DNA of 38,180 bases from an uncultured Bdellovibrionales bacterium (GTDB lineage: Bacteria > Patescibacteriota > Minisyncoccia > Moranbacterales > UBA2206), in assembly GCA_964630615.1 (NCBI GenBank), contig CAZVVG010000003.1, positions 1-38,180 of the forward strand, given 5' to 3'. Position numbers and translations under genes: made by a program. The notes under the pieces are model-generated. The model worked only from the letters and a program-made list of their open reading frames with translations. It was not told the DNA's origin and did not search any database. Below, piece by piece: positions 4,282 to 20,967 of the stretch. Each line of letters begins with the position of its first letter. Position 1 is the stretch's first letter.

Positions 4282-5094
4282 TTATTCTTCAGCCGGAGGA
4301 AAAGAAAATTCTTCCCTTTCAGGAAAGGAAGAGAGTTCTCGGCTTTCATTTTTTGGCTCAGTTGGAATACTTTCTCTTTCTCGAGCAGAAAATGTTTGCG
4401 GTTTTTTGACAAGATAAATGGAACCGCTTTCTTCGCTCCGGAAAAAATAGAAAAATCCGAAAGATCCGACGGCCCCGATAATCAAAGCCAATAGGGAGTT
4501 TAGAAAGACATTAGGACGCGCCTGATTTTTGCTGGTTATCGGTCCGTCAATCGTGCTTATAACGACTCTTTCTCCCCCACCGTGATATTTGGCGCTGTTA
4601 GCAGAAAGGTTTTCGGAAATCGCTTGAACAATTTTTTCCGCTTCTTTGCGGGAGGGATCAAAAACGCTGATTTTGATAATCCCGGTATTATTAATTTTTT
4701 TGGTTTTCACGTCTCTTTCCCATTCCTTTTTTCTTTCTTCCCGATCACTGGAAAATTTCCGCTGAATTCCTGCCGGGGATTTGAGAACCTCATCAATGAA
4801 GGAATCCGTATAGATGATTTTGGAAAAAATGTCGCTTAGGTATTCCGCCGACTTAGCAGCCGAATAAGCGTCCACTTTATCTTCCGGTTGTTTCTGAATA
4901 ACCAGAACGCTCATCTGCGATTCATACTTGGGAGTCAGAAACGCTGAAACGGCAAAAACAATCGCCGTCAAGAAAAGCGTGGTGAGAGAAATGGAAGTCC
5001 AATTCTCTTTGAGAGTTTTCATAAAATTGTTCATAACTTTTTTTAGCTTTATTAAAGGTTTCTTTTCGTCCTGAATCGGGATTCCGAGAAACAT
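4282..5094 (-). CDS. Wzz/polysaccharide co-polymerase-like chain-length determinant, paralog 1
   Basis: Short N-terminus, then a TM helix (ISLTTLFLTAIVFAVSAFL), then PKYESQMSVLV, and a C-terminal TM helix (LLALIIGAVGSFGFFYFF). An alternative start at 5034 (MNNFMKTLKENW) is plausible. Confidence 0.7.
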   Translation of the reverse strand: MFLGIPIQDEKKPLIKLKKVMNNFMKTLKENWTSISLTTLFLTAIVFAVSAFLTPKYESQMSVLVIQKQPEDKVDAYSAAKSAEYLSDIFSKIIYTDSFIDEVLKSPAGIQRKFSSDREERKKEWERDVKTKKINNTGIIKISVFDPSRKEAEKIVQAISENLSANSAKYHGGGERVVISTIDGPITSKNQARPNVFLNSLLALIIGAVGSFGFFYFFRSEESGSIYLVKKPQTFSARERESIPTEPKNESRELSSFPEREEFSFPPAEE

Positions 5095-5227: not shown

Positions 5228-6127
5228 TTACTGTTCGATTATTTTTAGCTCTTTTAGCTGATAAGTCCCAGCCTGAAAGCCAAAAATAATTACCAGGCTG
5301 GCGGAGCTGTCTGTTTGGGAGGGAATAATCTCTGCGATGAGATTTTCCCCATACAGCTCTACTGCCTTCTCGCCGTAACTTCGGCTACCCTGTTTCAGCT
5401 GAATAATAACTTCAGCCGAAGGTAAGGAGTAGCCGGACACGATAACTTTATACACTCGGCCGGCGGTAATGGAAATCCCATCCCACCGAAGCATGGTACT
5501 CCATCTCTCTTGACCCATCCGGACATTTAATGTTCCGGATGAAGGATCCCAAGTGGAGCCGCTATTTGACCAAAATATTCCCTGACTTATATTAACAGGG
5601 ATTATTCTGGTTTGACTCGTAGTGGTTTTCAGCCGCGATCGCTTTACAGCGATATCACCGGCGAAAACATACTTGCCGGCTTTCTGGCCGAACATAAGTA
5701 AAAATTCGGCCTGATTATCATCCGCTTCAACCGCAAGCTGGATGATATTTTTCCCTTGAAAACCAAACTCTTGGGAGGCATAGGTTATATCCCCGCCTTT
5801 GTTTTTGATTTTCAGGGAAACTCCATCATTTCCCGATCCGGAAACGGTGAATTCTAATCGGTCACCTTTTCGAATTGGGAAATCTTCCCATTTTAAGGCA
5901 GACTGATATGGTTCTCCGTCTCTGGCAACCCAAATTTCAGGATTCTTATACATACCACCATTGTTTGACCAGAATTTTGCTCCGGCCAAATTAAGGTTAA
6001 AGTTTTCAACCACGTATTCGCGGTTGTCAATTTGAGGTTGAACTTCTCCCTCATCATCTCCGCCTCCACCACAGCCAATGAGAATAAGGGTGGCCATAAC
6101 AAAAACAAAAAACCTCTTTACCTTCAT
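5228..6127 (-). CDS. Lipoprotein with two tandem related domains (family not recognised)
   Basis: 299 aa. Signal peptide with lipobox LIGC and a GGGG linker. Perfect AGGAGG at 6141-6136, 8 nt from the ATG. The internal duplication is visible: FWSNNGG..LKWEDFPIRKGDRLEFTVSG versus FWSNSGS..LRWDGISITAGRVYKVIVSG. Confidence 0.85.
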   Translation of the reverse strand: MKVKRFFVFVMATLILIGCGGGGDDEGEVQPQIDNREYVVENFNLNLAGAKFWSNNGGMYKNPEIWVARDGEPYQSALKWEDFPIRKGDRLEFTVSGSGNDGVSLKIKNKGGDITYASQEFGFQGKNIIQLAVEADDNQAEFLLMFGQKAGKYVFAGDIAVKRSRLKTTTSQTRIIPVNISQGIFWSNSGSTWDPSSGTLNVRMGQERWSTMLRWDGISITAGRVYKVIVSGYSLPSAEVIIQLKQGSRSYGEKAVELYGENLIAEIIPSQTDSSASLVIIFGFQAGTYQLKELKIIEQ

Positions 6128-6355: not shown

Positions 6356-6509
6356 ATTTTGTTAAAGCTAGAACCTTGAAAATTCAATTTTCTACCCACC
6401 CTTTTGGAAGTCAAATTTATTTTTGGCTTTTGGAATGGTGGGTGGGACAGGTAAAAAAGTATATAATAATAAAAAAACGAAACAACAAAGAAGGAAGAAG
6501 GAGGAGAAA

Positions 6510-7298
6510 ATGAAGAAAGTGCTGTTTTTTTGTGTCGTTTTTATTTTTTTTACTGCGGGTGCCCTGGCCGCGGATGTCACCGTAAGGGGTGACACCGTTC
6601 GTGGTCCGGTAGTTTCCGCACTTATCAACAGCTATTTCCCGGGAGTGAAGGGAGTGGCTGTTGTTGATAACTCCCTTGGCGAGAATGTTCTCGTCACGGG
6701 AGCGGGAGGTTCGGAGAGGATTCACTTTTCTGGGCCTTTGGTCGCGAAGCTCCAAAAGCTGACGGCCAATCCCCGGGCCGGCGAAGGGCTTATGTCCATT
6801 TGTCCTGGACAGGCCAAGCAGCTCGCGAGAGCTGTTGGTCCGATGCCGGTGGCAGTGGCAAAGGCTCCCATCATCACCTGGGAGGAGAAGTCCTCTCACT
6901 GTGATCGGAGCGGCGGGTGTTACGGCAAGGTCCTGACTGGCAAGTACAGGACCCTCAAGCCGTTCCAGGGGGTAAGATTGGTTTCTAATGTTGGAAACCA
7001 GAATTATCCCAACAATTCGATCTCTTTCAAGATCGAATACCATGAGGCCGGTCTTACAGGATGGCCTTATGGGACTGGCTGGGGTCCGACCATCGTAGTT
7101 CGCAACGCAACGGTAGAAAACCCGTTTGAGTTGCTGAATATGGCGGCCCCCTGCATACTGCCCTATCTTGAGCGCATCAAGGCGCTTAAGAAGGGGCAGC
7201 CTGGAACCGAAGGTGATTCCTGCTGGGAAGTCGTCCTTCTTAGAGACGGAAGTCTCTATAAGGATGAAAGCCCGGCCGAAGCACCTTTCGGCCGCTAA
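6510..7298 (+). CDS. Secreted Cys-containing protein of unknown family (GC-rich)
   Basis: The track ORF starts at a TTG at 6423. I prefer the ATG at 6510, which is preceded by AGGAGG (6499-6504) and followed by the signal peptide MKKVLFFCVVFIFFTAGALA/AD. The protein has six Cys residues after the predicted cleavage site. A sampled line (6781-6840) is 58% GC. Confidence 0.8.
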   Translation: MKKVLFFCVVFIFFTAGALAADVTVRGDTVRGPVVSALINSYFPGVKGVAVVDNSLGENVLVTGAGGSERIHFSGPLVAKLQKLTANPRAGEGLMSICPGQAKQLARAVGPMPVAVAKAPIITWEEKSSHCDRSGGCYGKVLTGKYRTLKPFQGVRLVSNVGNQNYPNNSISFKIEYHEAGLTGWPYGTGWGPTIVVRNATVENPFELLNMAAPCILPYLERIKALKKGQPGTEGDSCWEVVLLRDGSLYKDESPAEAPFGR

Positions 7299-7317
7299 CC
7301 TGTTACCCACCACCCAA

Positions 7318-7353
7318 AGCCCGTCAGTGCATTGCACCAACGGGCTTTTTTAA
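7318..7353 (+). terminator. Intrinsic terminator of the plus-strand secreted-protein gene
   Basis: aaagcccgt...acgggcttt stem with an inner gtgc/gcac extension, followed by ttttt. Confidence 0.8.
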
Positions 7354-7404: not shown

Positions 7405-7959
7405 CTAATATTCAGAGCAGTTCGCTTCGGTGGATTCTTTTATGGATTTAATTTTTTCCTTAAGTTCAGTATATTCAGTTTCGAGATAATTCTCCTGACC
7501 GCGGTAGGAATAATTATAAGAAAATCTTTGTTCCAGCGCCCGGACTAAGCCTAGCCCGTAAAGAGGTAGATTTTCCGTGTTCGCGTAAAGGTGCTTGATT
7601 TTTGAGTCCTCGGGTGAGAAAATTTTCAGGCTCAAATCGGAAAAAGAAGCTAAATAATCTTTTTCAAGGGCAAAGGAGGTTTTTTCTAATTCCCTTATTT
7701 CCAGAAGTGCCTCTTTTTGTTTTTCTTCGGTAATATACCTTTGGGATCCGAAATCGTCTGCCCTTTCTTTCAAAGTGTCGGCGGTTTTTTCCAGAGCCTT
7801 TATTTTTTGGCAAAGCGTTTCATAATGAATCATCGCTTCTTTTTCCAGAGAGAAATAAAATAATTTTTTGTAAAAATAGAAACTGAAAATCAAGGTTCCC
7901 AGGAGAAGCGAACAAAGAAGGTAAAAATAAATTTTCTTCTCTTTAAGAAGATTTTTCAT
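7405..7959 (-). CDS. Membrane-anchored coiled-coil protein (unknown function)
   Basis: 184 aa with an N-terminal TM helix (IYFYLLCSLLLGTLIFSFYFY) and a charged E/K-rich remainder. Its start overlaps the end of the upstream ligase-like gene by 17 nt. Confidence 0.6.
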   Translation of the reverse strand: MKNLLKEKKIYFYLLCSLLLGTLIFSFYFYKKLFYFSLEKEAMIHYETLCQKIKALEKTADTLKERADDFGSQRYITEEKQKEALLEIRELEKTSFALEKDYLASFSDLSLKIFSPEDSKIKHLYANTENLPLYGLGLVRALEQRFSYNYSYRGQENYLETEYTELKEKIKSIKESTEANCSEY

Positions 7960-9298
7960 GGGAATTTTTTAGCGGCTCTTTTTTTGCGAGCGCAAAGGAG
8001 GTACCCAAAAGCGCCCAAAGCGTCCATTGGGTAACCGTTTCCCGAAGCGTATTATTCGTCAAAGAAAAGCTTATTAAAGCCAAAAATAGGGCCAAAACAA
8101 AAAGGTGAAAATCCTTGAGATATTTATTTTTAGCTTTCACATAAGGGGTAAAAGAATTTTTAAGGGCCACCATGATCAAAAGAAAATAAGCCAGGAGCCC
8201 CGGAATTCCGGTTTCCAAAGCGACGCGCAAGAAATCATTGTGGGTGTAGGGATTGCCGGCGTAAGGTCCATATTCCTGTTCGTGAGCAAGGGTTTCCGTC
8301 CCAATCCCCTGCCCGATGGCGGGATTCTTGAGAAAAATCTGATACATCCTTTCCCATTGGGCAAAGCGCCAGCGCACAGAACTGTCCGCCGGCGGATTGT
8401 AGATATCTTCAATCCTCTCCTGAACCAGCGGAAAACTGAAATATAAAACGAGAGCCAGCCCGGCCGCTAGGAGAATCAGCTTGGGAGATTTTTTGAGAAT
8501 TAAGATTAAAATAAAAATCAGGAAAGCAAACCAGGCGCCGCGGGAAAAAGTTTCAACCAGTAAAATTAAACCCCAAAAAATCAAACCGGAAAGAAAGAAT
8601 CTATACATCTGCTCTTTTTCCCAAGTTACAAGAAAAGAAGCAGCGACAAGGACAATGACAATAAAAGAAGCAAAGGGATTGGGATGGCTGAAAGTGCCAA
8701 AAAGTCGGCTTTCAATTCCCGAGGTGCCGCCCAATCCGGTCCCGGTGGCCAATTGATAAGTCGCGAAAAGAAAAGGAACCACGGCGGAAGAAGCAAGTGC
8801 CCAAAGAATCAGAGACGGATTTTTTTCCTTCCGCGCCAGGAGGTAAAAGGAAGCAAAAACCAATAAAATGCTTAGCAGGCGAATTAATTCGTAAAAGCTG
8901 GCCGATTTGTCAATGGAAAAGAAAAGGCTAAGAAGAGAAATTAAAAGAAACATTAACCAAAGAAAAACGGCGGGTAATTTGCTGAAACTTCCAAGATTCT
9001 TGAGAATGAAAAAGGAAAGCAATCCGATTACCAGAATTCCCAACATCGCTCCGGCGTTGAAGGTCAGATTTTCATTCAAACTCAGAGTAATGTTCTCGCT
9101 GAAGCGGTCAATTGAAGGACGCAGAAAAATAATCAAAAAGAGTCCCCACTTGGGATTGGCCAAAAAAACGATGGCCAAAACCAAACCCAAGACCAGCAAA
9201 AAGCTGTTAAGAATGGGCTGATGGGAAACTAGATTAAAGAGAAAGATCACAGTCAATCCCGCCAGCAACAAAAATCCGTTAGTTTTTTTTGACAGCAT
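7943..9298 (-). CDS. O-antigen ligase/polymerase-like (Wzy_C-type) polytopic membrane protein
   Basis: 451 aa with many TM helices. Contains an ETFSRGAWFAFLIF-type motif and a large loop carrying HNDFLRVALETG. Confidence 0.75.
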   Translation of the reverse strand: MLSKKTNGFLLLAGLTVIFLFNLVSHQPILNSFLLVLGLVLAIVFLANPKWGLFLIIFLRPSIDRFSENITLSLNENLTFNAGAMLGILVIGLLSFFILKNLGSFSKLPAVFLWLMFLLISLLSLFFSIDKSASFYELIRLLSILLVFASFYLLARKEKNPSLILWALASSAVVPFLFATYQLATGTGLGGTSGIESRLFGTFSHPNPFASFIVIVLVAASFLVTWEKEQMYRFFLSGLIFWGLILLVETFSRGAWFAFLIFILILILKKSPKLILLAAGLALVLYFSFPLVQERIEDIYNPPADSSVRWRFAQWERMYQIFLKNPAIGQGIGTETLAHEQEYGPYAGNPYTHNDFLRVALETGIPGLLAYFLLIMVALKNSFTPYVKAKNKYLKDFHLFVLALFLALISFSLTNNTLRETVTQWTLWALLGTSFALAKKEPLKNSHEKSS

Positions 9299-9343: not shown

Positions 9344-10603
9344 ATGAGAATTCTTCAAGTCCATAAATACTTTACTCGAAAAAGAGGAGGCGGTTCCGTC
9401 ACGGTCTTTTTTGAAATGATAAAATTGTTGGAAAAGAAGGGTCATATGGTTTCGGTTTTCGCGTTGGCTGATTTGCAAAACGAGGAAACTCCTTTTGCTA
9501 AATATTTCCCCTCCCACTTTGACTTAAACGAAAAAACAGGATTCTTTCGGAAACTGTATCTGGCCGGTAAGCTGATTTATAATCGAGAAGCGGAAGATAA
9601 GCTGAAAAAATTGATTGAGGAATATCCTCCGGAAATTGCCCACCTGCATAATATTTATCATTATCTCACTCCTTCCATTATTCGGCCGCTCAAGAAAAGA
9701 AAAATTCCGGTTGTGATGACGCTTCACGATTACAAATTGATTTGTCCGAATTACAAACTTTTCAATAAAGGCCGGATTTGCGAAAAATGCAAGGGTGGGA
9801 AATATTATCAGTGCTTTTTTAATAAATGCCTGAAAAATTCCCGAAGTGCCAGTTTTTTGGCAATGCTCGAGGCCTATGTTCACAGACTACTCAAAAGTTA
9901 CGAAGGGGTGGATCTTTTTCTCGCGCCTAGCGACTTTATGCGGGAAAAATGTGTGGAATTTGGGATTCCTCCGGAGAAAATAAGAAAGCTGAGGAATGTC
10001 TTTGATGCCCGGAAATTTGAAATTGATGAGGAAAACCCAACGGAAGAAAATTATTTTGTTTTTTTTGGAAGAATTTCTGAGGAAAAAGGTCTGAAAAATC
10101 TTATCCAAGCGGTTGGGGACCTTATTGAATTGGGAAAAATGAAAGAAAACCGCCTATTGATTGTCGGCAAGGGACCGCAAGAAGCCGAGCTCAAAAAATT
10201 AGTAAAAGAAAAAAAATTGGAGGATAAGATTATTTTTGCCGGATTCAAACAGGGAGCGGAACTCAGAGAAATAATCTTAAAAGCTAAATTTGTGGTTGTG
10301 CCTTCTCTTTGGCACGACAACTCACCGTCGGTGATTATTGAAGCGCAATTTTACGCCAAGCCGGTGATTGTTTCCGACCGGGGCGGTTCGAAAGAATCTA
10401 TTCTTCCGGGAGAAACCGGTCTAGTTTTTCAGGCGGAAGAGGTTTCCGATTTGGCGAAAAAAATAAGCCAGCTGCTCGAGCTGACTTATGATGAAAGACT
10501 GGCATTGGGCAGGAAGGGCCGGGAAAACATCCTAAAAATCAATGACGAAGAGAAGCTTTATCAGGAGCTTTTAGGTATTTACCGAGAACTTCTGGCGGGT
10601 TAA
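9344..10603 (+). CDS. GT4-family glycosyltransferase
   Basis: 419 aa. MRILQVHKYF start, a Cys cluster (CPNYKLFNKGRICEKCKGGKYYQC), a C-terminal GT1/GT4 block (FVVPSLWHDNSPSVIIEA) and GETGLVF. Confidence 0.85.
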   Translation: MRILQVHKYFTRKRGGGSVTVFFEMIKLLEKKGHMVSVFALADLQNEETPFAKYFPSHFDLNEKTGFFRKLYLAGKLIYNREAEDKLKKLIEEYPPEIAHLHNIYHYLTPSIIRPLKKRKIPVVMTLHDYKLICPNYKLFNKGRICEKCKGGKYYQCFFNKCLKNSRSASFLAMLEAYVHRLLKSYEGVDLFLAPSDFMREKCVEFGIPPEKIRKLRNVFDARKFEIDEENPTEENYFVFFGRISEEKGLKNLIQAVGDLIELGKMKENRLLIVGKGPQEAELKKLVKEKKLEDKIIFAGFKQGAELREIILKAKFVVVPSLWHDNSPSVIIEAQFYAKPVIVSDRGGSKESILPGETGLVFQAEEVSDLAKKISQLLELTYDERLALGRKGRENILKINDEEKLYQELLGIYRELLAG

Positions 10604-11749
10604 GGGGGATTTTTTCTTTTTTTGGTTTAATATCTGGCGATAAATCGCCAAAGTTTCGGCCACATTGCGATCCCAATTGTAGAAAAATTCCACCCGTTTC
10701 TTGGCCCGTTCTCCCAGAATTTTCAGTTCTTTCTTTTTTTCCAAAGAGAAGATTAGTTTTTCTTTCAAATCTTCAATATTTTTTGATTCAAAAATTATTC
10801 CTGTGTTTCCGACTGGCAGGAGATTTTCTTCAATATTGCTGACAATCGGCGCCAGGCCGTAGCCCATAGCTTCTAGGAGGGCATTGGAAAGGCCTTCCGC
10901 CTCGGAAGGCTGGACGAAAGTATAGGCGCAAGAGTAAAGCCGGGCCAGGGTCAGGCCTTTTTGGTTTCCGGTAAAGACAATGTTGGCGTTATTTTTGGCC
11001 AAGTCCTTGATAAATTCCACGTAATCATCCGTAAAAGCACTGTCGCCGACAATGACCAATTTGAAATCGGCGGGAATTTTTCCGGATTTTTGCAGCTCAT
11101 CAAAAGCCTGAATCAGATAATGAATCCCCTTGTGCTTAACCAGGCGACTGACCACCAAAAAGTAACGGTGGTTTTCCAGTTTCCACTTTTTAATTTCTTC
11201 GTAATTTCCCGGTTTTTTAATCACCGCAGAACCGTTATTAATCACGACTGTTTCCCGACCGTATTTTTCTCGGGCGTATCTTTTCAGGATCTCGCTAACC
11301 GTAATGGTCTTGTCCGGGACATTCACAATGATTTTTTCTCCCAGCTTCAAATAGCGCTTGGCAATTTTCCCCCATTTTTGGTGTTGGCTGTCGAGGGAAT
11401 TGAAGGTCGCGATCAGGGCGATTTTCGGTCGAAAGATTTTTATTAGCCAACATAAGGAAGAAGGTCCTGGCGCCTGATAGTGAACCACGTCGTAATTTTG
11501 AAAAATGGCGTGCACCGTAGCCAGAAAGGTATGAAAAATTGTATCCAGATGCTTGGTCGCGATGGAAGGCAAGTGAATTAGTTTAACCCTTTTGTATTCC
11601 CGAATGTTTTTGGAAGTATAATCGTTTCTGACATAAACAAAAACCTCATGGCCTAATTGAACCATTTTGGTGCTCAATTCTTCCACTCTACGTTCCACGC
11701 CTCCGAATTGAACTGGTATTCCCTTTTGTCCGATAAATGCAATTTTCAT
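10571..11749 (-). CDS. GT4-family glycosyltransferase
   Basis: MKIAFIGQKGIPVQFGGVERRVEEL start and SEAEGLSNALLEAMGYG (EX7E region). The track ORF begins at a TTG at 11854, which is itself the -35 box of the promoter, so I start the gene at the ATG at 11749. Confidence 0.8.
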   Translation of the reverse strand: MKIAFIGQKGIPVQFGGVERRVEELSTKMVQLGHEVFVYVRNDYTSKNIREYKRVKLIHLPSIATKHLDTIFHTFLATVHAIFQNYDVVHYQAPGPSSLCWLIKIFRPKIALIATFNSLDSQHQKWGKIAKRYLKLGEKIIVNVPDKTITVSEILKRYAREKYGRETVVINNGSAVIKKPGNYEEIKKWKLENHRYFLVVSRLVKHKGIHYLIQAFDELQKSGKIPADFKLVIVGDSAFTDDYVEFIKDLAKNNANIVFTGNQKGLTLARLYSCAYTFVQPSEAEGLSNALLEAMGYGLAPIVSNIEENLLPVGNTGIIFESKNIEDLKEKLIFSLEKKKELKILGERAKKRVEFFYNWDRNVAETLAIYRQILNQKKKKSPLTRQKFSVNT

Positions 11750-11825: not shown

Positions 11826-11854
11826 ATAATAGCACTTTTCAGAAAAAAAGTCAA
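11826..11854 (-). promoter_or_regulatory. sigma70-type promoter with extended -10
   Basis: Minus strand reads TTGACT, 17-nt spacer ending in TGC, TATTAT. It lies immediately downstream of the terminator at 11857-11894. Confidence 0.6.
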
Positions 11855-11856
11855 GT

Positions 11857-11894
11857 TAAAAAAAGGGCCTCGAACGAATTTCGTTCAAGACCCT
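11857..11894 (-). terminator. Strong intrinsic terminator closing the two-gene cassette
   Basis: Minus-strand 14-bp stem agggtcttgaacga-aat-tcgttcgaggccct followed by ttttttt. The two non-Watson-Crick positions are G-U wobbles on the minus-strand RNA and C-A mismatches on the plus strand. Confidence 0.85.
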
Positions 11895-11904
11895 TTATGA
11901 TGTT

Positions 11905-12714
11905 TTAGGGGTTGACTTTTTCCACTTGTTTCGCCGCATTGTATCTGATTACGGTCGAAACAAGATTAGATGTGTCTAACCCCGCGTTCACGAAGGAAAA
12001 GTTACCTCCGTGTTTTAGGTCGAATTCTGGCCCAACGGACAGGTAGAGTATTTCATACTTATCCGTCAAGCCTACGGCTAAACTCAGGGATGCGTATTGC
12101 CCGGGGGTTCCTATGGACAAATCAGCCTGAAGGTAGGGTTTTATCCACCATCCTTCATGCAGATACTGTCGGCCCCCGATGTCAAAAATCCCGTCAGTCT
12201 TGCTCTTAGAATTCCGGCCGTCAGCCCACAAGGCCTGACCCCAGAGCTCCGTTTTGGGAAAGGAATTCCTTCCCCAATCATCCTCGTGTCTCAGGGCAAG
12301 ATATCCCCCAACCCCGTAAAGATTATACCGGGGTTGAGTCTTGCCATAAGACTCTTTCTGCGTTCCGGCCAGTGCGGACAGCCGATAGTCACCCCAGGAG
12401 TGATAACCTCGAAAGGCTATCTGCCCGAGGTGTCTCTGACCATAGCCGGTGTCGGAGTCCCAATAATTCCCTTTATAACCAACCCCAAGAAGGTTGGCCC
12501 CATTTTCGTTTACCCAAGCAAATGGGTAAACGATAATGTTTCCATGAGCGCTTGTGGAATTTTTAGTATCTTTCCACTTCGCACCCACGAAACTATCCAC
12601 TTTGGATACTCCTGACCACTTGGCCAGTTTGTCCTTGTCACTATTACCTCCATCTGCAAATGCAGAAGAAGCAATAAATAACAAAATAACAATTACATTC
12701 ATCAACTTTTTCAT
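11905..12714 (-). CDS. Secreted Gly/Tyr/Trp-rich all-beta protein, beta-barrel-like (family not recognised)
   Basis: 269 aa. Signal peptide MKKLMNVIVILLFIASSAFA/DG. AGGAGG at 12729-12724, 9 nt from the ATG. About 11 amphipathic 9-13-residue segments are separated by short G/D/N turns. A sampled line (12241-12300) is 53% GC. Confidence 0.8.
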   Translation of the reverse strand: MKKLMNVIVILLFIASSAFADGGNSDKDKLAKWSGVSKVDSFVGAKWKDTKNSTSAHGNIIVYPFAWVNENGANLLGVGYKGNYWDSDTGYGQRHLGQIAFRGYHSWGDYRLSALAGTQKESYGKTQPRYNLYGVGGYLALRHEDDWGRNSFPKTELWGQALWADGRNSKSKTDGIFDIGGRQYLHEGWWIKPYLQADLSIGTPGQYASLSLAVGLTDKYEILYLSVGPEFDLKHGGNFSFVNAGLDTSNLVSTVIRYNAAKQVEKVNP

Positions 12715-12732
12715 TTCTGAAAACCTCCTTTT

Positions 12733-13929
12733 TTATTTTTTAGTTATTTTTGTGAGATAGCTTATCTCCTCCTGGCATTCTGCCAGATAAGGGGCTAATG
12801 CTTGAGCGGCTTGATATCCTGAAACTTTCGCTTCAAGAAAGTTGCCAGTCAAAGTATCATCAGCGGCTGCGATTGACCAGACAATTAACATTCTGATCAA
12901 CTCGCAAGGAGGACAAAGAACCGAACTGATACTGATATTAGGCAATCCCCCTTTTTCCACTACTCTCCTTGCGAAACTCGCGTTATTGCTTGAGCCCACA
13001 AGACTTTTCAGGGTTTCCTCATCCGTTTCGGAAGAAACTCTTTTCCCTTTAACATAATAATCATTGGGAAAAATTTTCTTTAGATCTCGGATAAATGCCT
13101 TGCCGTTCTCAGTTTCGGGAGAAATGTCAATCAACATTTCTTCCGTAATCCGAGAATTATGCTCCGTGAAAAATTCAACCTGTTTTTCAGAGTTAAACTC
13201 AACCATTTTGCCGGAAAGAGTAAGCGCGAACTTACCACTGCCGGAAATAATGGCCAGATTTTTTCCCAACAGGTCAGACTGCTTCTTTCCCTTGGCTATA
13301 ACGAATACATGTGTTCCGTATTTTGTTATAACCGCAGGAAAATCTTCTTCCGTTGTCCGCCAAACTTTACGGACAAAGAACTTCTCTGATTCTTTGCCAT
13401 CTTTCTCGGAAATAGAGTACATTCCGAGTCCATCCCCAATCCAATTAGATCGGAAAATAGGAACAACGATGGCCGTTATCTGCTCTTTGCTCAAGTTCTT
13501 GAGATCTAACGGTAAGGCCACTGACTCAAAAACTTCCTCAACGCCCCTAGTAATTTTGGAGTCAGCTTTTTCCTTAATCGGAGGTAATTCACCGGTTCTG
13601 AAAAGCACCTCCCCCTCATTTTCGAGACGATATAAAACAAAATTATCCGTCTCGTATTTTTCCGCTTGGAAGAAATGGTTTCCATCCCACTTCAACTTCC
13701 CATCTCTTCCTAAAACATCTTTGCGGATTATAGCCGAGACGGCCATCCCCTTCGAAATGTCTATCTTCCCGGAAAAATTATTCTGCTCCACTAAACTATT
13801 TAGTGAAGCAGCGATTGACTCGGGGAACCCGAGCTTCTTAATTTTTTCTAACCTAGAAATTTCCGCAATTGCAGAAGAAACTAGGCAGAAAAAAACCACC
13901 GCCACAATAACTGCAACCTTTCCTTTCAT
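12733..13929 (-). CDS. Secreted protein of unknown family
   Basis: 398 aa. Signal peptide MKGKVAVIVAVVFFCLVSSAIA/E. AGGAGG at 13942-13937, 7 nt from the ATG. A Cys-containing C-terminal segment (CPPCELIR...AECQEE). Its stop is 18 nt upstream of the next gene start. Confidence 0.8.
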   Translation of the reverse strand: MKGKVAVIVAVVFFCLVSSAIAEISRLEKIKKLGFPESIAASLNSLVEQNNFSGKIDISKGMAVSAIIRKDVLGRDGKLKWDGNHFFQAEKYETDNFVLYRLENEGEVLFRTGELPPIKEKADSKITRGVEEVFESVALPLDLKNLSKEQITAIVVPIFRSNWIGDGLGMYSISEKDGKESEKFFVRKVWRTTEEDFPAVITKYGTHVFVIAKGKKQSDLLGKNLAIISGSGKFALTLSGKMVEFNSEKQVEFFTEHNSRITEEMLIDISPETENGKAFIRDLKKIFPNDYYVKGKRVSSETDEETLKSLVGSSNNASFARRVVEKGGLPNISISSVLCPPCELIRMLIVWSIAAADDTLTGNFLEAKVSGYQAAQALAPYLAECQEEISYLTKITKK

Positions 13930-13979
13930 TTTTTGGCCTCCTATTTTTATTTTTTTATATTCACTTTTTAAGTAACTTT

Positions 13980-14037
13980 CCTGAAAATTCAGGAGGAGAA
14001 TCCCTAAGGAAAGAGATTCTCTTCTTAACTTTTCAGG
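13980..14037 (-). promoter_or_regulatory. Long imperfect hairpin in the 5' leader, containing an anti-SD-like CUCCUCC
   Basis: Minus strand reads cctgaaaa gttaagaagagaatc tctttccttagg gattctcctcctgaa ttttcagg. The outer 8 bp are perfect, and the inner arm pairs aagaagagaatc with gattctcctcct. Confidence 0.45.
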
Positions 14038-14065
14038 CTTAAAATAAACAAATTTTTAACTCACA

Positions 14066-14094
14066 ATACTAGCACAACAAAGCAATTTTGTCAA
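14066..14094 (-). promoter_or_regulatory. sigma70-type promoter of the two-gene cassette
   Basis: Minus strand reads TTGACA (14094-14089), 17-nt spacer ending in TGC, TAGTAT (14071-14066). Confidence 0.6.
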
Positions 14095-14124
14095 ATGAAA
14101 AACCCTCTTCTCAAAAAGAGGGTT
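14095..14124 (-). terminator. Intrinsic terminator after the HtrA paralog
   Basis: Minus strand reads aaccctctt-tttgag-aagagggtt followed by tttc. It directly abuts the next -35 box. Confidence 0.65.
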
Positions 14125-14146: not shown

Positions 14147-15280
14147 TTAAAGATTAACCTCGATTTTCATTTCCTGCTCATTCCGAATCAGCGTCAGCTC
14201 AATAGTATCGCCTTTTTTATACTTGTAAAGAAGATCGGGCAAGGTATTTTTTTTGTTGATTTCTTCTCCGTTGAGAGCAATCAGCATATCTCCGATTTTC
14301 AGGCCCGCTTTTTGTGCAGGAGAACCTGCAATGACCGCCAACCCCTGTTGTCCGGAGGCGGAATAGACAAGCGCTCCGTTTTCCCGAGTGATTTTTCCTA
14401 GAGTCAGATAAGTTTTATTGGCCGGAAGGAAATAGATTCCCAAATAAGGATTCTGTTCCAGCCTGTTTTGTAGGACTTTATCCAAAACCCTTTTTATCTT
14501 ATTGGCTGGAATTTGAAAATAAGTTTTTTCCGGTCCGCTCTCTACCACACCGGTAACTCCGATGACCTGCCCAAGATAATCTACGATCGGTCCGCCGACA
14601 TACTCATCTTTGGAAGTAAAAGTGTCCTTAAAGACTCCTTCCATTTTTTCCGAGGAGGAAACCTTTCCTCCGAAAAGATTAAAATCCGAGCTCCAACCTC
14701 CCAAAATAGAGGTAGTGTAATTATTGGAATAATCCAATGAATTATTGCTCAAGGCGACGATTTTTTCCCCAATTTTAGCATCTTCCGAATTGGCAAAAGA
14801 AATCGTGGGCAAGTTGCTGGCTTCTATTTTCAGGAAGGCCAAGTTGCTATAGCTGTCAATGCCGAGGAGCTTGGCTTCTTTGACATTACCGTCAAAAAGA
14901 AACACCTGGTAGGTGGAATTTTCTTTCAGAAGGGCACTTGCGTAGGTCATAATGATGCCATCACTGGTCACAATCATTCCCGTTCCATTTTTTATGAGCG
15001 CCGGTTCTTTTTTGGAAATAGTCTCATTTTTTGAAGCCGAAACAATGTTGACCAGGGAGGAAGAAACCTGGTTGATAACTTTTTCAATGGAAAATTCCTC
15101 TTTGACCGTTACTTGCTCCGTTTTGTTTATGATGGTCACGTCTTGAGCTGCTTTTCTGACAATATCGTATTTGGAAAAAAAAGAAACCGTGCTTAGGTAA
15201 GGAAAAAGAAAGCGATCAGCCAGGATTCCACCGAAACCCCCCAATACGACCACTAAAAAATAAAAACCTATTTTTTTCAT
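14147..15280 (-). CDS. HtrA/DegP-like trypsin-fold plus PDZ protein with all three catalytic residues substituted (predicted inactive)
   Basis: 377 aa with an N-terminal TM helix. It aligns by eye to the active paralog at 16060-17322. TNKHVV becomes TYASAL (His to Ser), NNDIAIIKI becomes YSNLAFLKI (Asp to Asn), and GNSGGP becomes EYVGGP (Ser to Val). The PDZ-like C-terminus is retained (GSPAQKAGLKIGDMLIALNG). Confidence 0.8.
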   Translation of the reverse strand: MKKIGFYFLVVVLGGFGGILADRFLFPYLSTVSFFSKYDIVRKAAQDVTIINKTEQVTVKEEFSIEKVINQVSSSLVNIVSASKNETISKKEPALIKNGTGMIVTSDGIIMTYASALLKENSTYQVFLFDGNVKEAKLLGIDSYSNLAFLKIEASNLPTISFANSEDAKIGEKIVALSNNSLDYSNNYTTSILGGWSSDFNLFGGKVSSSEKMEGVFKDTFTSKDEYVGGPIVDYLGQVIGVTGVVESGPEKTYFQIPANKIKRVLDKVLQNRLEQNPYLGIYFLPANKTYLTLGKITRENGALVYSASGQQGLAVIAGSPAQKAGLKIGDMLIALNGEEINKKNTLPDLLYKYKKGDTIELTLIRNEQEMKIEVNL

Positions 15281-15298: not shown

Positions 15299-16036
15299 TC
15301 AAATAAGAGGGATCCATTTGGAGGTTAGGAGAACCAGGGAGGCTAGAAAGAAGAAAAAAACCAGATTAGTAATTACCTTTTTTTTATTTAATTGATGAAG
15401 GAAGTAGCTTCTAATCAGATCCCAAAATATGTAGTAAAGTATGAGTCCAATGACGCCGGTTGTCAAATAGCCGAAAGGCCAAAAATTCATGGTCCAGATC
15501 AATTCTGTCATCAGAAAAGCCAAGATTAGGGTATAAAGCCATACCTGTTTCCGGTCCTGGTTAATCAGGGAAAAATAGGGAAAGCTGACAAAAAGGGTAA
15601 CGAATAAATAATCCAGCATCAGAAAATAAGCGGGAACTAAAAAGTTTAAGTAAAGTCCGTAAAGACTGGAATAGGAAAAAAAAATCGTGGAAACCGAAGC
15701 GGTTACGAGCATTCCTTGCGCGGTTTTATCTTTAGCGTAAAGACCAAGTCGGTTGGTTCCCAAGAGTCCTAAATAATAAACTAAAACCGAGAGGAAAATA
15801 AAAGCCTGTTCTTCTATCCAGAAAGAAATAAGGTAAAGAAGCGCAATAGAAAAAAGGGCGAAAAAGAAAGGAATAATCGCGAAAATCCATTTTTTTCCAA
15901 TTTGTGCTCCAATATAGAAAGAAAATATCAAGATAATGGATAAGATCCAAAAGACTTTTTCGGGAAAAAAAACCAAGGCCTCCAGACCGAGAAAAAAAAC
16001 CAAAGCGAAAATTAGGGGTCGGATCTTAATAAACAT
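15299..16036 (-). CDS. Polytopic membrane protein (unknown function)
   Basis: 245 aa and almost entirely hydrophobic, with about 7-8 TM segments. Lies between the two HtrA paralogs. Confidence 0.6.
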   Translation of the reverse strand: MFIKIRPLIFALVFFLGLEALVFFPEKVFWILSIILIFSFYIGAQIGKKWIFAIIPFFFALFSIALLYLISFWIEEQAFIFLSVLVYYLGLLGTNRLGLYAKDKTAQGMLVTASVSTIFFSYSSLYGLYLNFLVPAYFLMLDYLFVTLFVSFPYFSLINQDRKQVWLYTLILAFLMTELIWTMNFWPFGYLTTGVIGLILYYIFWDLIRSYFLHQLNKKKVITNLVFFFFLASLVLLTSKWIPLI

Positions 16037-19176: not shown

Positions 19177-20967
19177 TTATTTTCTCAAAACCGCTAAAAA
19201 AGCTTCTGAAGGAATATTCACCTTTCCGATTTTTTTGAGCTTTTTTTTGCCTTTTTTTTGCTTTTCCAGAAGCTTTTTTTTACGGGTTACGTCTCCGCCA
19301 TAGAGTTTCTCCGTAACATCTTTCCGAAAGGCTTTGACTGTTTCCCGGGCAATGACTTTTCCTCCAATCGCTGCCTGGAGAGCGATTTGGAAATTTTGTT
19401 TAGGAATAACAGCTTTGAGTTTCTCCACCATTCTTTTTCCTTCAGCAAAAGCTTTTTCTTGGGGTACAATACGAGAAAAAGCTTCAACCTTTTCTTGAGC
19501 CACGAGAATATCCATTTTCACTAAGTTGTATTTTTTATATTCCGAAAGAGTGTAGCTCATGGAAGCATATCCTGAAGAAGCGCTCTTTAATTCATCGTGA
19601 AGATTGATAATCACTTCCGTAAGCGGACAGTCAAAAGTCAAAATGAGGCGTTCCTCATCAACGTAATGGGTGTTCAGATATTGCGATCGGGCGTCTTTCA
19701 TTATTTCCATAATGGAGCCGAGATATGAACTGGGAGAAACAATGTTTAACTTCACGTAGGGTTCAAAAATTTCTTCAATCGAAGACGGATCAGGCATTTC
19801 CGAGGGAGAATAAATTTTTTTCCTCCCCTCCTGATTTTTTAGCTTTATTTCGTAAACCACACTGGGAGTTGTAACTGTAGGACTGATTTTAAATTCTCTT
19901 TCCAGGCGGGACTGGATAATTTCCAAATGCAACATACCCAAAAATCCACAACGGAAACCTCTTCCGAGGGCAATGTTTGATTCCGGCTCAAAATCAAAAG
20001 CCGCGTCGTTTAATTTCAGTTTTTCCAGAGCCTCCCGCATAAAATTATAATCGTCACCTTCAATTGGATAAAAAGAAGCGTAAACCATAGGGACAACTTT
20101 TTGATATCCCGGTAATTTTAGAACCTGATCTTTCAAGTTTGAGAGGGTCAAGGTATCCCCGACTTGGCAGTGGGAAACACTTTTTAGTCCGGTGGCGATA
20201 TAACCGATATCGCCAGCCGCTAAGAATTCTTTTTTTTCCAATTCGGGCTTGAAACAGCCGACTTCAATAACTTGACCTTCCACTTGACCCTCCATAAGAA
20301 AAATTTTTTCCTCCGCTCGCACTTTTCCGTCCATTATTCTTACGTAAGCCAAAACCCCTTTGTATATGTCATATTTGGAATCAAAAATTAGTCCTCTAAA
20401 TTTATTTTTTTCGTTTCCTCTTGGAGGAGGAATTTTTTTTATAATTACTTCAATTAATTTTTCTATTCCCGTTCCTTCTTTTCCGGAAACCTCTAAAATT
20501 TCGTCTTCCCGACAGCCGAGAATATGAACAATTTCCTTTTTTGTCTTGGCAGTGTTGGCGCTGGGAAGATCAATCTTGTTGACGGCCGGAATTATCTCCA
20601 GCCCTTGCTCTATGGCCAGGTAGAGATTGGAAAGGGTTTGCGCTTGCACTCCCTTTGAAGCATCCACGAGCAAGACGGCGCCTTCAACCGCCGCCAAAGA
20701 ACGGGAAACTTCATAATTAAAATCCACATGTCCAGGAGTATCAATCAGGTTAAGTACGTATTTTTTCCCTTGCCAGAAATGTTCCATTCTTACAGGTTGG
20801 AGCTTAATTGTTATCCCCCGCTCTCTTTCCAAATCCATTTGATCCAGAAATTGTTCTTTCATTTTTCTTTTTTCCACTGTCCGCGTCACTTCTAAAAGAC
20901 GATCAGAGAGAGTCGATTTACCATGATCAATATGAGCAATAATGCAAAAATTACGAGTATTTTCCAT
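19177..20967 (-). CDS. lepA: Elongation factor 4 (LepA)
   Basis: 596 aa. NFCIIAHIDHGKSTL, DTPGHVDF and NKIDL G-motifs, plus the LepA-specific C-terminus. Confidence 0.95.
   Translation of the reverse strand: MENTRNFCIIAHIDHGKSTLSDRLLEVTRTVEKRKMKEQFLDQMDLERERGITIKLQPVRMEHFWQGKKYVLNLIDTPGHVDFNYEVSRSLAAVEGAVLLVDASKGVQAQTLSNLYLAIEQGLEIIPAVNKIDLPSANTAKTKKEIVHILGCREDEILEVSGKEGTGIEKLIEVIIKKIPPPRGNEKNKFRGLIFDSKYDIYKGVLAYVRIMDGKVRAEEKIFLMEGQVEGQVIEVGCFKPELEKKEFLAAGDIGYIATGLKSVSHCQVGDTLTLSNLKDQVLKLPGYQKVVPMVYASFYPIEGDDYNFMREALEKLKLNDAAFDFEPESNIALGRGFRCGFLGMLHLEIIQSRLEREFKISPTVTTPSVVYEIKLKNQEGRKKIYSPSEMPDPSSIEEIFEPYVKLNIVSPSSYLGSIMEIMKDARSQYLNTHYVDEERLILTFDCPLTEVIINLHDELKSASSGYASMSYTLSEYKKYNLVKMDILVAQEKVEAFSRIVPQEKAFAEGKRMVEKLKAVIPKQNFQIALQAAIGGKVIARETVKAFRKDVTEKLYGGDVTRKKKLLEKQKKGKKKLKKIGKVNIPSEAFLAVLRK

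Follow-up and report, generated by a model that had tools for sequence, protein, structure and literature searches.

A co-inherited gene pair for a predicted outer-membrane-type beta-barrel and its partner in a Wzy-type glycan neighbourhood of Moranbacterales

The A-B unit and its transcription signals

The window, the whole stretch of 38,180 nucleotides (nt) analyzed here, corresponds to contig C3 in a genome of 0.74 Mb and 64 contigs from the order Moranbacterales, with a completeness rating of 97%; related contigs carry the names Candidatus Moranbacteria or Patescibacteria. Its minus strand encodes two adjacent secreted proteins, A (398 amino acids (aa); 12733-13929; signal peptide ending in AIA before E) and B (269 aa; 11905-12714; signal peptide ending in AFA before D), which are the subject of this study. 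B is predicted to fold into a 12-stranded barrel of the outer-membrane protein (OMP) type, A is its candidate partner, and the pair recurs, A directly upstream of B, in other genomes of the order. The two proteins may form an envelope complex, a barrel plus partner, tied to a Wzy-type surface-glycan pathway, a reading to which we assign a probability of about 0.45.

Read along the minus strand, the unit begins with an intrinsic terminator (14101-14124; 10-bp stem and U-run, -13.1 kcal/mol) that follows a gene for an HtrA paralogue lacking catalytic residues. It continues with a TTGACA-17-TAGTAT promoter with an extended -10 TG (14066-14094; a 10/12 scan match with TG) and a 130-nt leader (13930-14059, the length being measured from 7 nt past the -10 box), which contains a central hairpin (~13980-14037) and the AGGAGG of gene A (13937-13942). 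Gene A is separated from gene B by an 18-nt spacer (12715-12732) carrying the AGGAGG of gene B (12724-12729), and B is followed by a second intrinsic terminator (11862-11896; 16 pairs and U-run, -23.7 kcal/mol) and by the promoter found in the scan for the next gene, TTGACT-17-TATTAT with TG (11826-11854). An earlier note on this DNA had described this succession, from the first terminator to the promoter of the next gene, and all of its elements were found on the minus strand, with the insulating signals kept in relatives; the stem of the downstream terminator, given there as 14 bp, counts 16 pairs in our scan. The description of the surroundings as a tightly packed minus-strand array is also fair: many gaps are ≤30 nt, compared with 217 and 158 nt around the A-B unit, although a few others are equally large.

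The scan returned 20 promoter-like sites in the window against 14.9 ± 4.2 in shuffled sequences, and 16 terminator-like sites against 11 ± 3. At these frequencies a lone match of either kind is within chance, and the support for the predicted signals comes from their conservation. Six related loci, whose A proteins are 41-61% identical to that of the window, keep the promoter hexamers and the TG without any change. Locus L001 has a hairpin and T-run at the position equivalent to the upstream terminator (14101-14124), as well as a terminator equivalent to 11862-11896 followed at the same place by a TTGACT...TATCAT promoter. Judging from these signals, the A-B unit would be transcriptionally sealed.

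The leader has a minimum free energy of -30.5 kcal/mol (z = -2.7 vs shuffles). The six leaders compared (window, L001, L002, L003, L005, and L012) are 130-209 nt long and each has a strong central hairpin in single-sequence folds; its 5' arm is rich in purines and its 3' arm in pyrimidines, and the arm sequences differ between loci (e.g., ATCTC/GAGAT vs ATCTT/AAGAT). RNAalifold found no useful consensus among the six, whose MAFFT alignment is poor, and a search of Rfam with the leader and the unit returned only chance-level matches and no family. An anti-Shine-Dalgarno element was considered for the 3' arm; CUCCUCC occurs in the window, but the arms of the relatives have other sequences. A strong Shine-Dalgarno sequence within 25 nt of the start is present in only 3 of 30 genes in the window, namely A, B, and a lipoprotein gene at 5228-6127, and the other genes checked have essentially none apart from one weak GAGGT at 19177-20967.

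Protein B, protein A, and their relatives

The AlphaFold2 model of B, built on a 45-row alignment, has a predicted local distance difference test score (pLDDT) of 87.5 and a predicted template modelling (TM) score of 0.80, and all five models fall within pLDDT 84-87.5. Between residues 39 and 246 it has twelve antiparallel strands, each 9-17 residues long, with connecting loops of 2-8 residues; a helix (248-263) comes after the last strand. A Foldseek search against the PDB returned 27 matches at E ≤ 1e-3, all of them outer-membrane beta-barrels (two rows being computed models of Escherichia coli OmpC), including AIDA-I, Hbp, EstA, BrkA, EspP, NalP, intimin, invasin, KdgM-type, and OmpG barrels. 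These matches have a probability of 1.0, TM-scores of 0.35-0.49, and sequence identities of 7-14%. The earlier note had guessed at a pore or anchor plus a partner, and this fits a predicted OMP-type barrel whose relatives carry a LysM wall anchor. Structure prediction of the single proteins, which it had also proposed, gave a confident barrel for B and a poor model for A (overall pLDDT 59).

That the barrel is a prediction artefact, or that A and B are unrelated surface proteins merely sharing an operon, is very improbable. The shallow alignment behind the B model, the modest TM-scores to known barrels, and the lack of a usable model for A would be expected in that case, but all five models of B are confident and the strand pattern, the glycine and aromatic composition, and the alternation are evident in the sequence itself. 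Mature B contains 13% Gly, 6.5% Tyr, and 4% Trp, and has no Cys or Met. As to an unrelated pair, the co-occurrence and adjacency of the two genes in other genomes, described below, are very strong.

Every strand of the B family has four to five alternating conserved hydrophobic positions. The opposite face holds near-invariant charged residues (D109, K154, E156, D178, R182, D218, and D232) and near-invariant glycines (G77, G79, G117, G134, G180, and G215), aromatic residues cluster at strand ends, and all loops are short. Because the most conserved polar residues share one face, this pattern suggests that the polar face lines the lumen and that the hydrophobic face points outward. The hydrophobic face could also point inward, its outward orientation being drawn from conservation alone, and B would then not be a membrane protein but a barrel, soluble or bound to the wall, that moves lipid-linked intermediates or scavenged lipids through the wall, with A as the membrane-side donor. 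A lipoprotein plus a carrier would suit a monoderm cell, and the absence of a barrel assembly machinery (BAM), discussed below, would pose no problem. We nevertheless consider a soluble carrier quite unlikely: the significant structural matches are all closed transmembrane barrels, the polar face has the most strongly conserved charged residues along with many glycines, which is the pattern of barrel lumens, and the loops are short with aromatic residues at the strand ends.

In its model, B resembles the barrels of autotransporters in fold and is not a member of those families, because the passenger, the Pfam signatures, and the dependence on BAM all fail. The classical (type Va) autotransporters are the best structural matches (BrkA 3qq2, Hbp 3aeh, AIDA-I 4mee, EstA 3kvn, EspP, and NalP; E-values of 1e-5 to 3e-4, probability 1.0) and likewise have 12 strands. 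B differs from them in having no N-terminal passenger, with ~17 residues between the signal peptide and strand 1, in having no PF03797 match, no sequence similarity (identities of 9-14%), and no BAM, and in the position of its helix, which is C-terminal to the barrel, whereas the type Va helix precedes it. With the inverse (type Ve) autotransporters, the relatives of B share the order of signal peptide, N-terminal LysM, and 12-stranded barrel, and B matches the intimin and invasin structures 4e1s and 4e1t at a probability of 1.0, TM-scores of 0.44-0.49, and a root-mean-square deviation of 6.0. However, neither B nor its 45 relatives matches IAT_beta (PF11924) or another OMP family of Pfam, and B has no C-terminal passenger, as its chain ends 23 residues past the last strand. 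In addition, the B protein of the window lacks the periplasmic LysM, although many of its relatives have one, the carrier genomes lack Omp85, and a dedicated upstream partner is not a type Ve feature. B also has no C-terminal aromatic beta-signal, since the last strand (238-246) is followed by the helix and the chain ends in ...EKVNP.

Both proteins lie outside described families. Neither A nor B was assigned to a family in Pfam, NCBIfam, PHROGs, or PADLOC, apart from a sub-threshold HTH_36 match on the signal peptide of B, and a phage or defence reading of the pair was dropped because these scans gave no family. Profiles of the A and B families matched nothing among PDB sequences at E < 0.7. 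Pfam returned no match on 25 A-family proteins (A and 24 relatives), and LysM was the sole family it returned on the 45 relatives of B. The label "orphan" given to both proteins in the earlier note holds as far as Pfam, NCBIfam, and PDB sequences are concerned, but both families are conserved across one order. Close homologues of each protein form 12-13 clusters among 5.8 billion proteins, those of B being encoded on the same contigs as those of A. An exhaustive profile search with B yielded 32 representative clusters, most of them 400-680 aa long with the B domain at the C-terminus. An N-terminal LysM was found in 11 of the 20 relatives scanned, giving a LysM-linker-barrel architecture of which the B protein of the window is the LysM-less form; its tail of 23 residues after the barrel compares with ~20-95 in the relatives. 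The GC content of gene B is 0.477 compared with 0.401 for the genome. A foreign island was rejected despite this difference, as the module is syntenic and appears to be vertically inherited across the order.

Protein A consists of a signal peptide of the signal peptidase I type, an N-domain (residues 24-118), a short linker rich in Pro, Lys, and Glu that is longer in relatives, and a conserved core (~130-398). The N-domain was modelled confidently as two helices and a six-stranded sheet. The core of A and that of its homologue at locus L014 align with an hhalign probability of 100% and an identity of 38%. Distant A homologues are shorter, and at least 13 of 18 have a lipoprotein signal (LSGCAS, LAGCSS, LTGCAS, and similar); they also have a C-terminal hydrophobic segment between two conserved cysteines. 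The subfamily of the window instead has a CPPC motif (A residues 338-341; 12913-12924, minus strand), a hydrophobic helix, and then a very conserved stretch formed by the last 60 residues. A redox role for this motif is unlikely because CPPC is not invariant, being FPPA in some relatives.

The commonest form of the pair among relatives is a lipoprotein A with a LysM-linker-barrel B. By comparison of the sequences, the window carries a derived form in which B has lost the LysM and A has lost the lipobox and gained an N-terminal domain. This N-domain is confined to the subfamily whose B proteins lack LysM, and B proteins with LysM are always paired with an A protein that lacks the N-domain. Gain of the N-domain and loss of the LysM were probably a single evolutionary event, so that the correlation is suggestive and does not amount to repeated evidence. 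The complementarity of domains fits a single complex in which the task of anchoring is divided between the two proteins. A derivation of the N-domain from the linker of the long B proteins was considered and failed, as the N-domain profile matches the close A subfamily only.

Co-inheritance and the glycan neighbourhood

To follow the pair through the order, a barrel-only profile (A7) and a profile of the A family (A5) were run on a sample of 301 of its genomes. Of these, 58 have B and 53 have A; both were present in 50, A only in 3, B only in 8 (mostly weak or partial matches), and neither in 240, giving a Fisher p of 1e-44 for co-occurrence, uncorrected for shared ancestry. As read from the coordinates, 45 of the 50 genomes with both have A directly upstream of B, on one contig and one strand, and the five exceptions are fragmented assemblies. 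The pair thus co-occurs repeatedly elsewhere, clearly not the case that the earlier note had named as fatal to its idea (two genes that never co-occur in other genomes), and its suggestion that the two genes act as a unit is borne out by these counts. An A core relative of 290-400 aa also precedes the LysM-B genes on the same strand, with hmmsearch matches in at least 20 of 30 further loci, and the two genes in relatives either overlap by 4-40 nt or lie ~20 nt apart. B is a single-copy gene. Its distribution is patchy: of 104 genera in the order, 17 have the barrel. Across 401 genomes sampled from the whole phylum, it turned up only in the three that belong to this order and was absent from the ~395 of other orders.

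Far from being an isolated insert, the unit belongs, by comparison with other loci, to a deeply conserved glycan neighbourhood. By Pfam, the gene that follows B on the same strand (10571-11749) encodes a glycosyltransferase of family 4 (GT4), and it is succeeded by a second GT4 gene on the plus strand (9344-10603), a Wzy_C gene (7943-9298, minus strand), and a Wzz-like gene (4282-5094, minus strand). The Wzz, Wzy_C, and GT4 genes are within 10 kb of the pair, and MurJ-like and DUF4012 genes are located upstream. Loci L001-L003 and L012 have the same order as the window, that is, HtrA, DUF5656, HtrA-like, A, B, GT4, GT4, Wzy_C, and, further on, Wzz. More distant neighbourhoods were compared as twelve 20-kb regions, each centred on a B match. 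A Wzy_C gene on the opposite strand adjoins the pair in all twelve and is followed by GT4 in 11, and a Wzz-like gene for a 229-aa protein lies just upstream of the pair in all twelve, mostly beside A and otherwise within ~1 kb. This Wzz-like label is weak, as the 229-aa protein has no Pfam match and is named for its similarity to the Wzz gene of the window (E = 2e-22). The profiles detect A in 9 and LysM-B in 7 of the 12 regions, and NosD-like and GT4 genes occur together in 4.

The deep gene order is accordingly Wzz-like, A, B, Y, Wzy_C, and GT4, where Y stands for a protein of 210 aa without a Pfam match. Y follows the barrel gene in 4 of the 12 distant loci (L046, L047, L055, and L056) and also in L014 (7583-8215), and no homologue was detected in the genome of the window. 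The window shares with both close and distant loci the core of this arrangement, in which A is located directly upstream of the barrel gene B, on the same strand and within a Wzz/Wzy_C/GT4 locus.

Several other genes adjoin the unit. The gene directly upstream of A (14147-15280, minus strand) encodes the HtrA paralogue without catalytic residues (Trypsin_2 and PDZ). In an alignment with the intact paralogue, the catalytic residues are changed from H to S, D to N, and S to V, and the fold and PDZ are kept, so it may be a chaperone-only HtrA. It is syntenic in L001-L006 and is not found in the distant loci. A polytopic membrane protein with DUF5656 (15299-16036, minus strand) is encoded between the two HtrA paralogues, and the trio is kept in L001, L002, L005, and L006. 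A link of A-B to the neighbouring HtrA and peptidyl-prolyl isomerase (PPIase) genes was considered and set aside, as it is limited to this clade and not seen in the distant loci. On the other side of the unit, the lipoprotein gene at 5228-6127 (minus strand) encodes 299 aa with the lipobox LIGC, a Gly-rich tether, and no Pfam match. The gene at 6417-7340 (minus strand) is the most GC-rich in the window (0.52; 0.565 at third codon positions (GC3)) and also has no Pfam match; its start is uncertain, as the listed TTG start has no ribosome-binding site.

Possible roles in the cell envelope

In the reading proposed here, B would be exported by Sec and would fold into a 12-stranded beta-barrel of outer-membrane type, and A, translated from the same mRNA at matched dosage, would be its dedicated partner. 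In the common form, the cytoplasmic membrane would hold the lipoprotein A on its outer side, and B would be fastened to peptidoglycan (PG) by its N-terminal LysM and long linker; in the clade of the window, the new N-terminal domain of A may take over the anchoring. The complex, situated in the outer envelope, would handle the polymer of the Wzy-type pathway, with B as a conduit or anchoring platform and A as a membrane-proximal adaptor, plug, or private assembly factor. This polymer is proposed because the pair sits with Wzz-like, Wzy_C, GT4, and MurJ/Wzx-type genes, and A is a candidate private assembly factor because BAM is absent. The strong promoter, the AGGAGG sites, which are rare in the window, and the terminators lend further support to this reading. 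From this evidence we infer physical contact between A and B, an envelope layer that would hold the barrel, and a role of the pair in glycan export.

Several observations weigh against this reading. Omp85/BamA (PF01103) was found neither in the genome of the window nor in 15 other barrel carriers, which include closed genomes and two assembled in one or two contigs, and the same search found it in 7 of 14 control genomes, always over the family cut-off. The barrel of B would therefore have no known route of insertion. To our knowledge, single-chain 12-stranded barrels of this type occur in outer membranes only and depend on Omp85/BamA. Moreover, cells of the Candidate Phyla Radiation (CPR) described so far are monoderm (PMC8871954), so there is no known outer membrane for the polymer to cross. 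On the side of A, the scans of Pfam, NCBIfam, PHROGs, and PADLOC gave no similarity to outer membrane polysaccharide export (OPX) or other proteins, only the N-domain is modelled with confidence and the core is poor, and Foldseek found no match for the A model at E ≤ 1e-3, although the model is too poor to trust. The outward hydrophobic face of B is read from conservation alone, and the gene neighbourhood is circumstantial for a role in glycan export. Finally, B has 12 strands, against 18 in Wzp/PgaA.

The proposed complex would be a functional counterpart of a composite OPX and Wzp translocon or of a barrel-lipoprotein pair such as LptD/LptE. Canonical Wza is a lipoprotein, as A is in relatives. 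In the Wzx/Wzy pathways of diderms, OPX proteins and beta-barrel porins (Wza-like and Wzp) are encoded beside polysaccharide co-polymerase (PCP) genes (PMC9603273), and the relatives of A-B show the same order of PCP (Wzz-like), partner, and beta-barrel inside a Wzy/GT locus. However, neither a Poly_export nor an SLBB signature is present in A, and the OPX family (Poly_export, PF02563) was found in none of the 16 carrier genomes, so A was rejected as an OPX/Wza-type protein; nor do the A-B carriers have a demonstrated outer membrane to cross. The pair can also be set beside LptD/LptE, a barrel with its plug and assembly partner, in that a barrel and a dedicated lipoprotein (A in relatives) are encoded together and strictly inherited together. 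The parallel is no more than an analogy, as there is no relation in sequence or fold. LptD has 26 strands and is BAM-dependent.

An unlikely alternative to the glycan-linked complex, though the least so among the rivals considered, is that B acts as a porin or tether, itself attached to the wall, within an outer layer of lipid or protein that has gone unrecognised, and serves nutrient uptake and envelope cohesion instead of glycan export, with A as its assembly factor and the glycan genes as neighbours only in being fellow envelope genes. Relatives of B join a PG-binding domain through a linker to an OMP-type barrel on a single polypeptide, which is how outer-membrane tethers such as OmpM of diderm Firmicutes, SlpA of Deinococcus-Thermus, and OmpA are built. 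Channels (KdgM and OmpG) are also among the structural matches, and B is single-copy and, judging from its signals, strongly expressed. On the other hand, B has neither an S-layer homology (SLH) domain nor OmpA_C, its relatives use LysM, and the B protein of the window has no wall-binding domain at all. These known tethers have strand counts other than the 12 of B. The lack of Omp85 in the carriers counts against an outer-membrane porin as well, and the occurrence of the gene, in 58 of 301 genomes, in 17 of 104 genera, and nowhere among the ~395 genomes from other orders, is patchier than would be expected of a core envelope component. The phylum is furthermore regarded as monoderm, as the described CPR cells are (PMC8871954).

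The same patchiness is what would be expected for host-interaction genes, and B could be a host-directed device, secreted by an episymbiont as a pore into the outer membrane or envelope of its host for nutrients, with A as a chaperone or adhesin. Small genomes of the CPR type, among which the 0.74-Mb genome studied here falls by size, are usually read as a sign of host dependence; the cell has no BAM of its own, and B is secreted with strong expression signals. The LysM and lipoprotein anchors in most relatives nevertheless favour retention on the wall and membrane of the producer, and the pair is stably linked to the cell's own Wzy, Wzz, and GT4 genes. We also know of no single-chain 12-stranded barrel that inserts itself from outside. 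A host-directed pore is therefore improbable, to about the same degree as the soluble carrier considered above.

A bolder proposal, which we regard as doubtful, is that one lineage within the Patescibacteria builds true membrane-type beta-barrels with no Omp85/BAM, each barrel being assembled or plugged by its co-encoded A, in an unseen outer lipid or protein layer or at a site of host contact. Full-text literature searches turned up no account of a protein or pair of this kind in Patescibacteria. The pair amounts to an OMP-type barrel with a wall anchor and a partner, predicted in a BAM-less and presumably monoderm lineage, to which the window adds a derived form without LysM whose partner has a new domain in place of the lipid anchor.

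The presence of B in BAM-less, presumably single-membrane CPR bacteria raises the questions of where such a barrel is located and how it is assembled. The A-B pair is a candidate for the last step of a Wzy-type surface-glycan pathway in organisms whose envelope is almost unknown. The variant in the window is a natural experiment, in which the wall and lipid anchors are gone and the partner has a new domain, and it singles out the N-domain of A and the contact between A and B. If membrane barrels made without BAM prove true, OMP-type barrels, and perhaps a rudimentary outer compartment, would exist in a phylum taken to be monoderm, which would bear on how outer membranes have been lost or gained.

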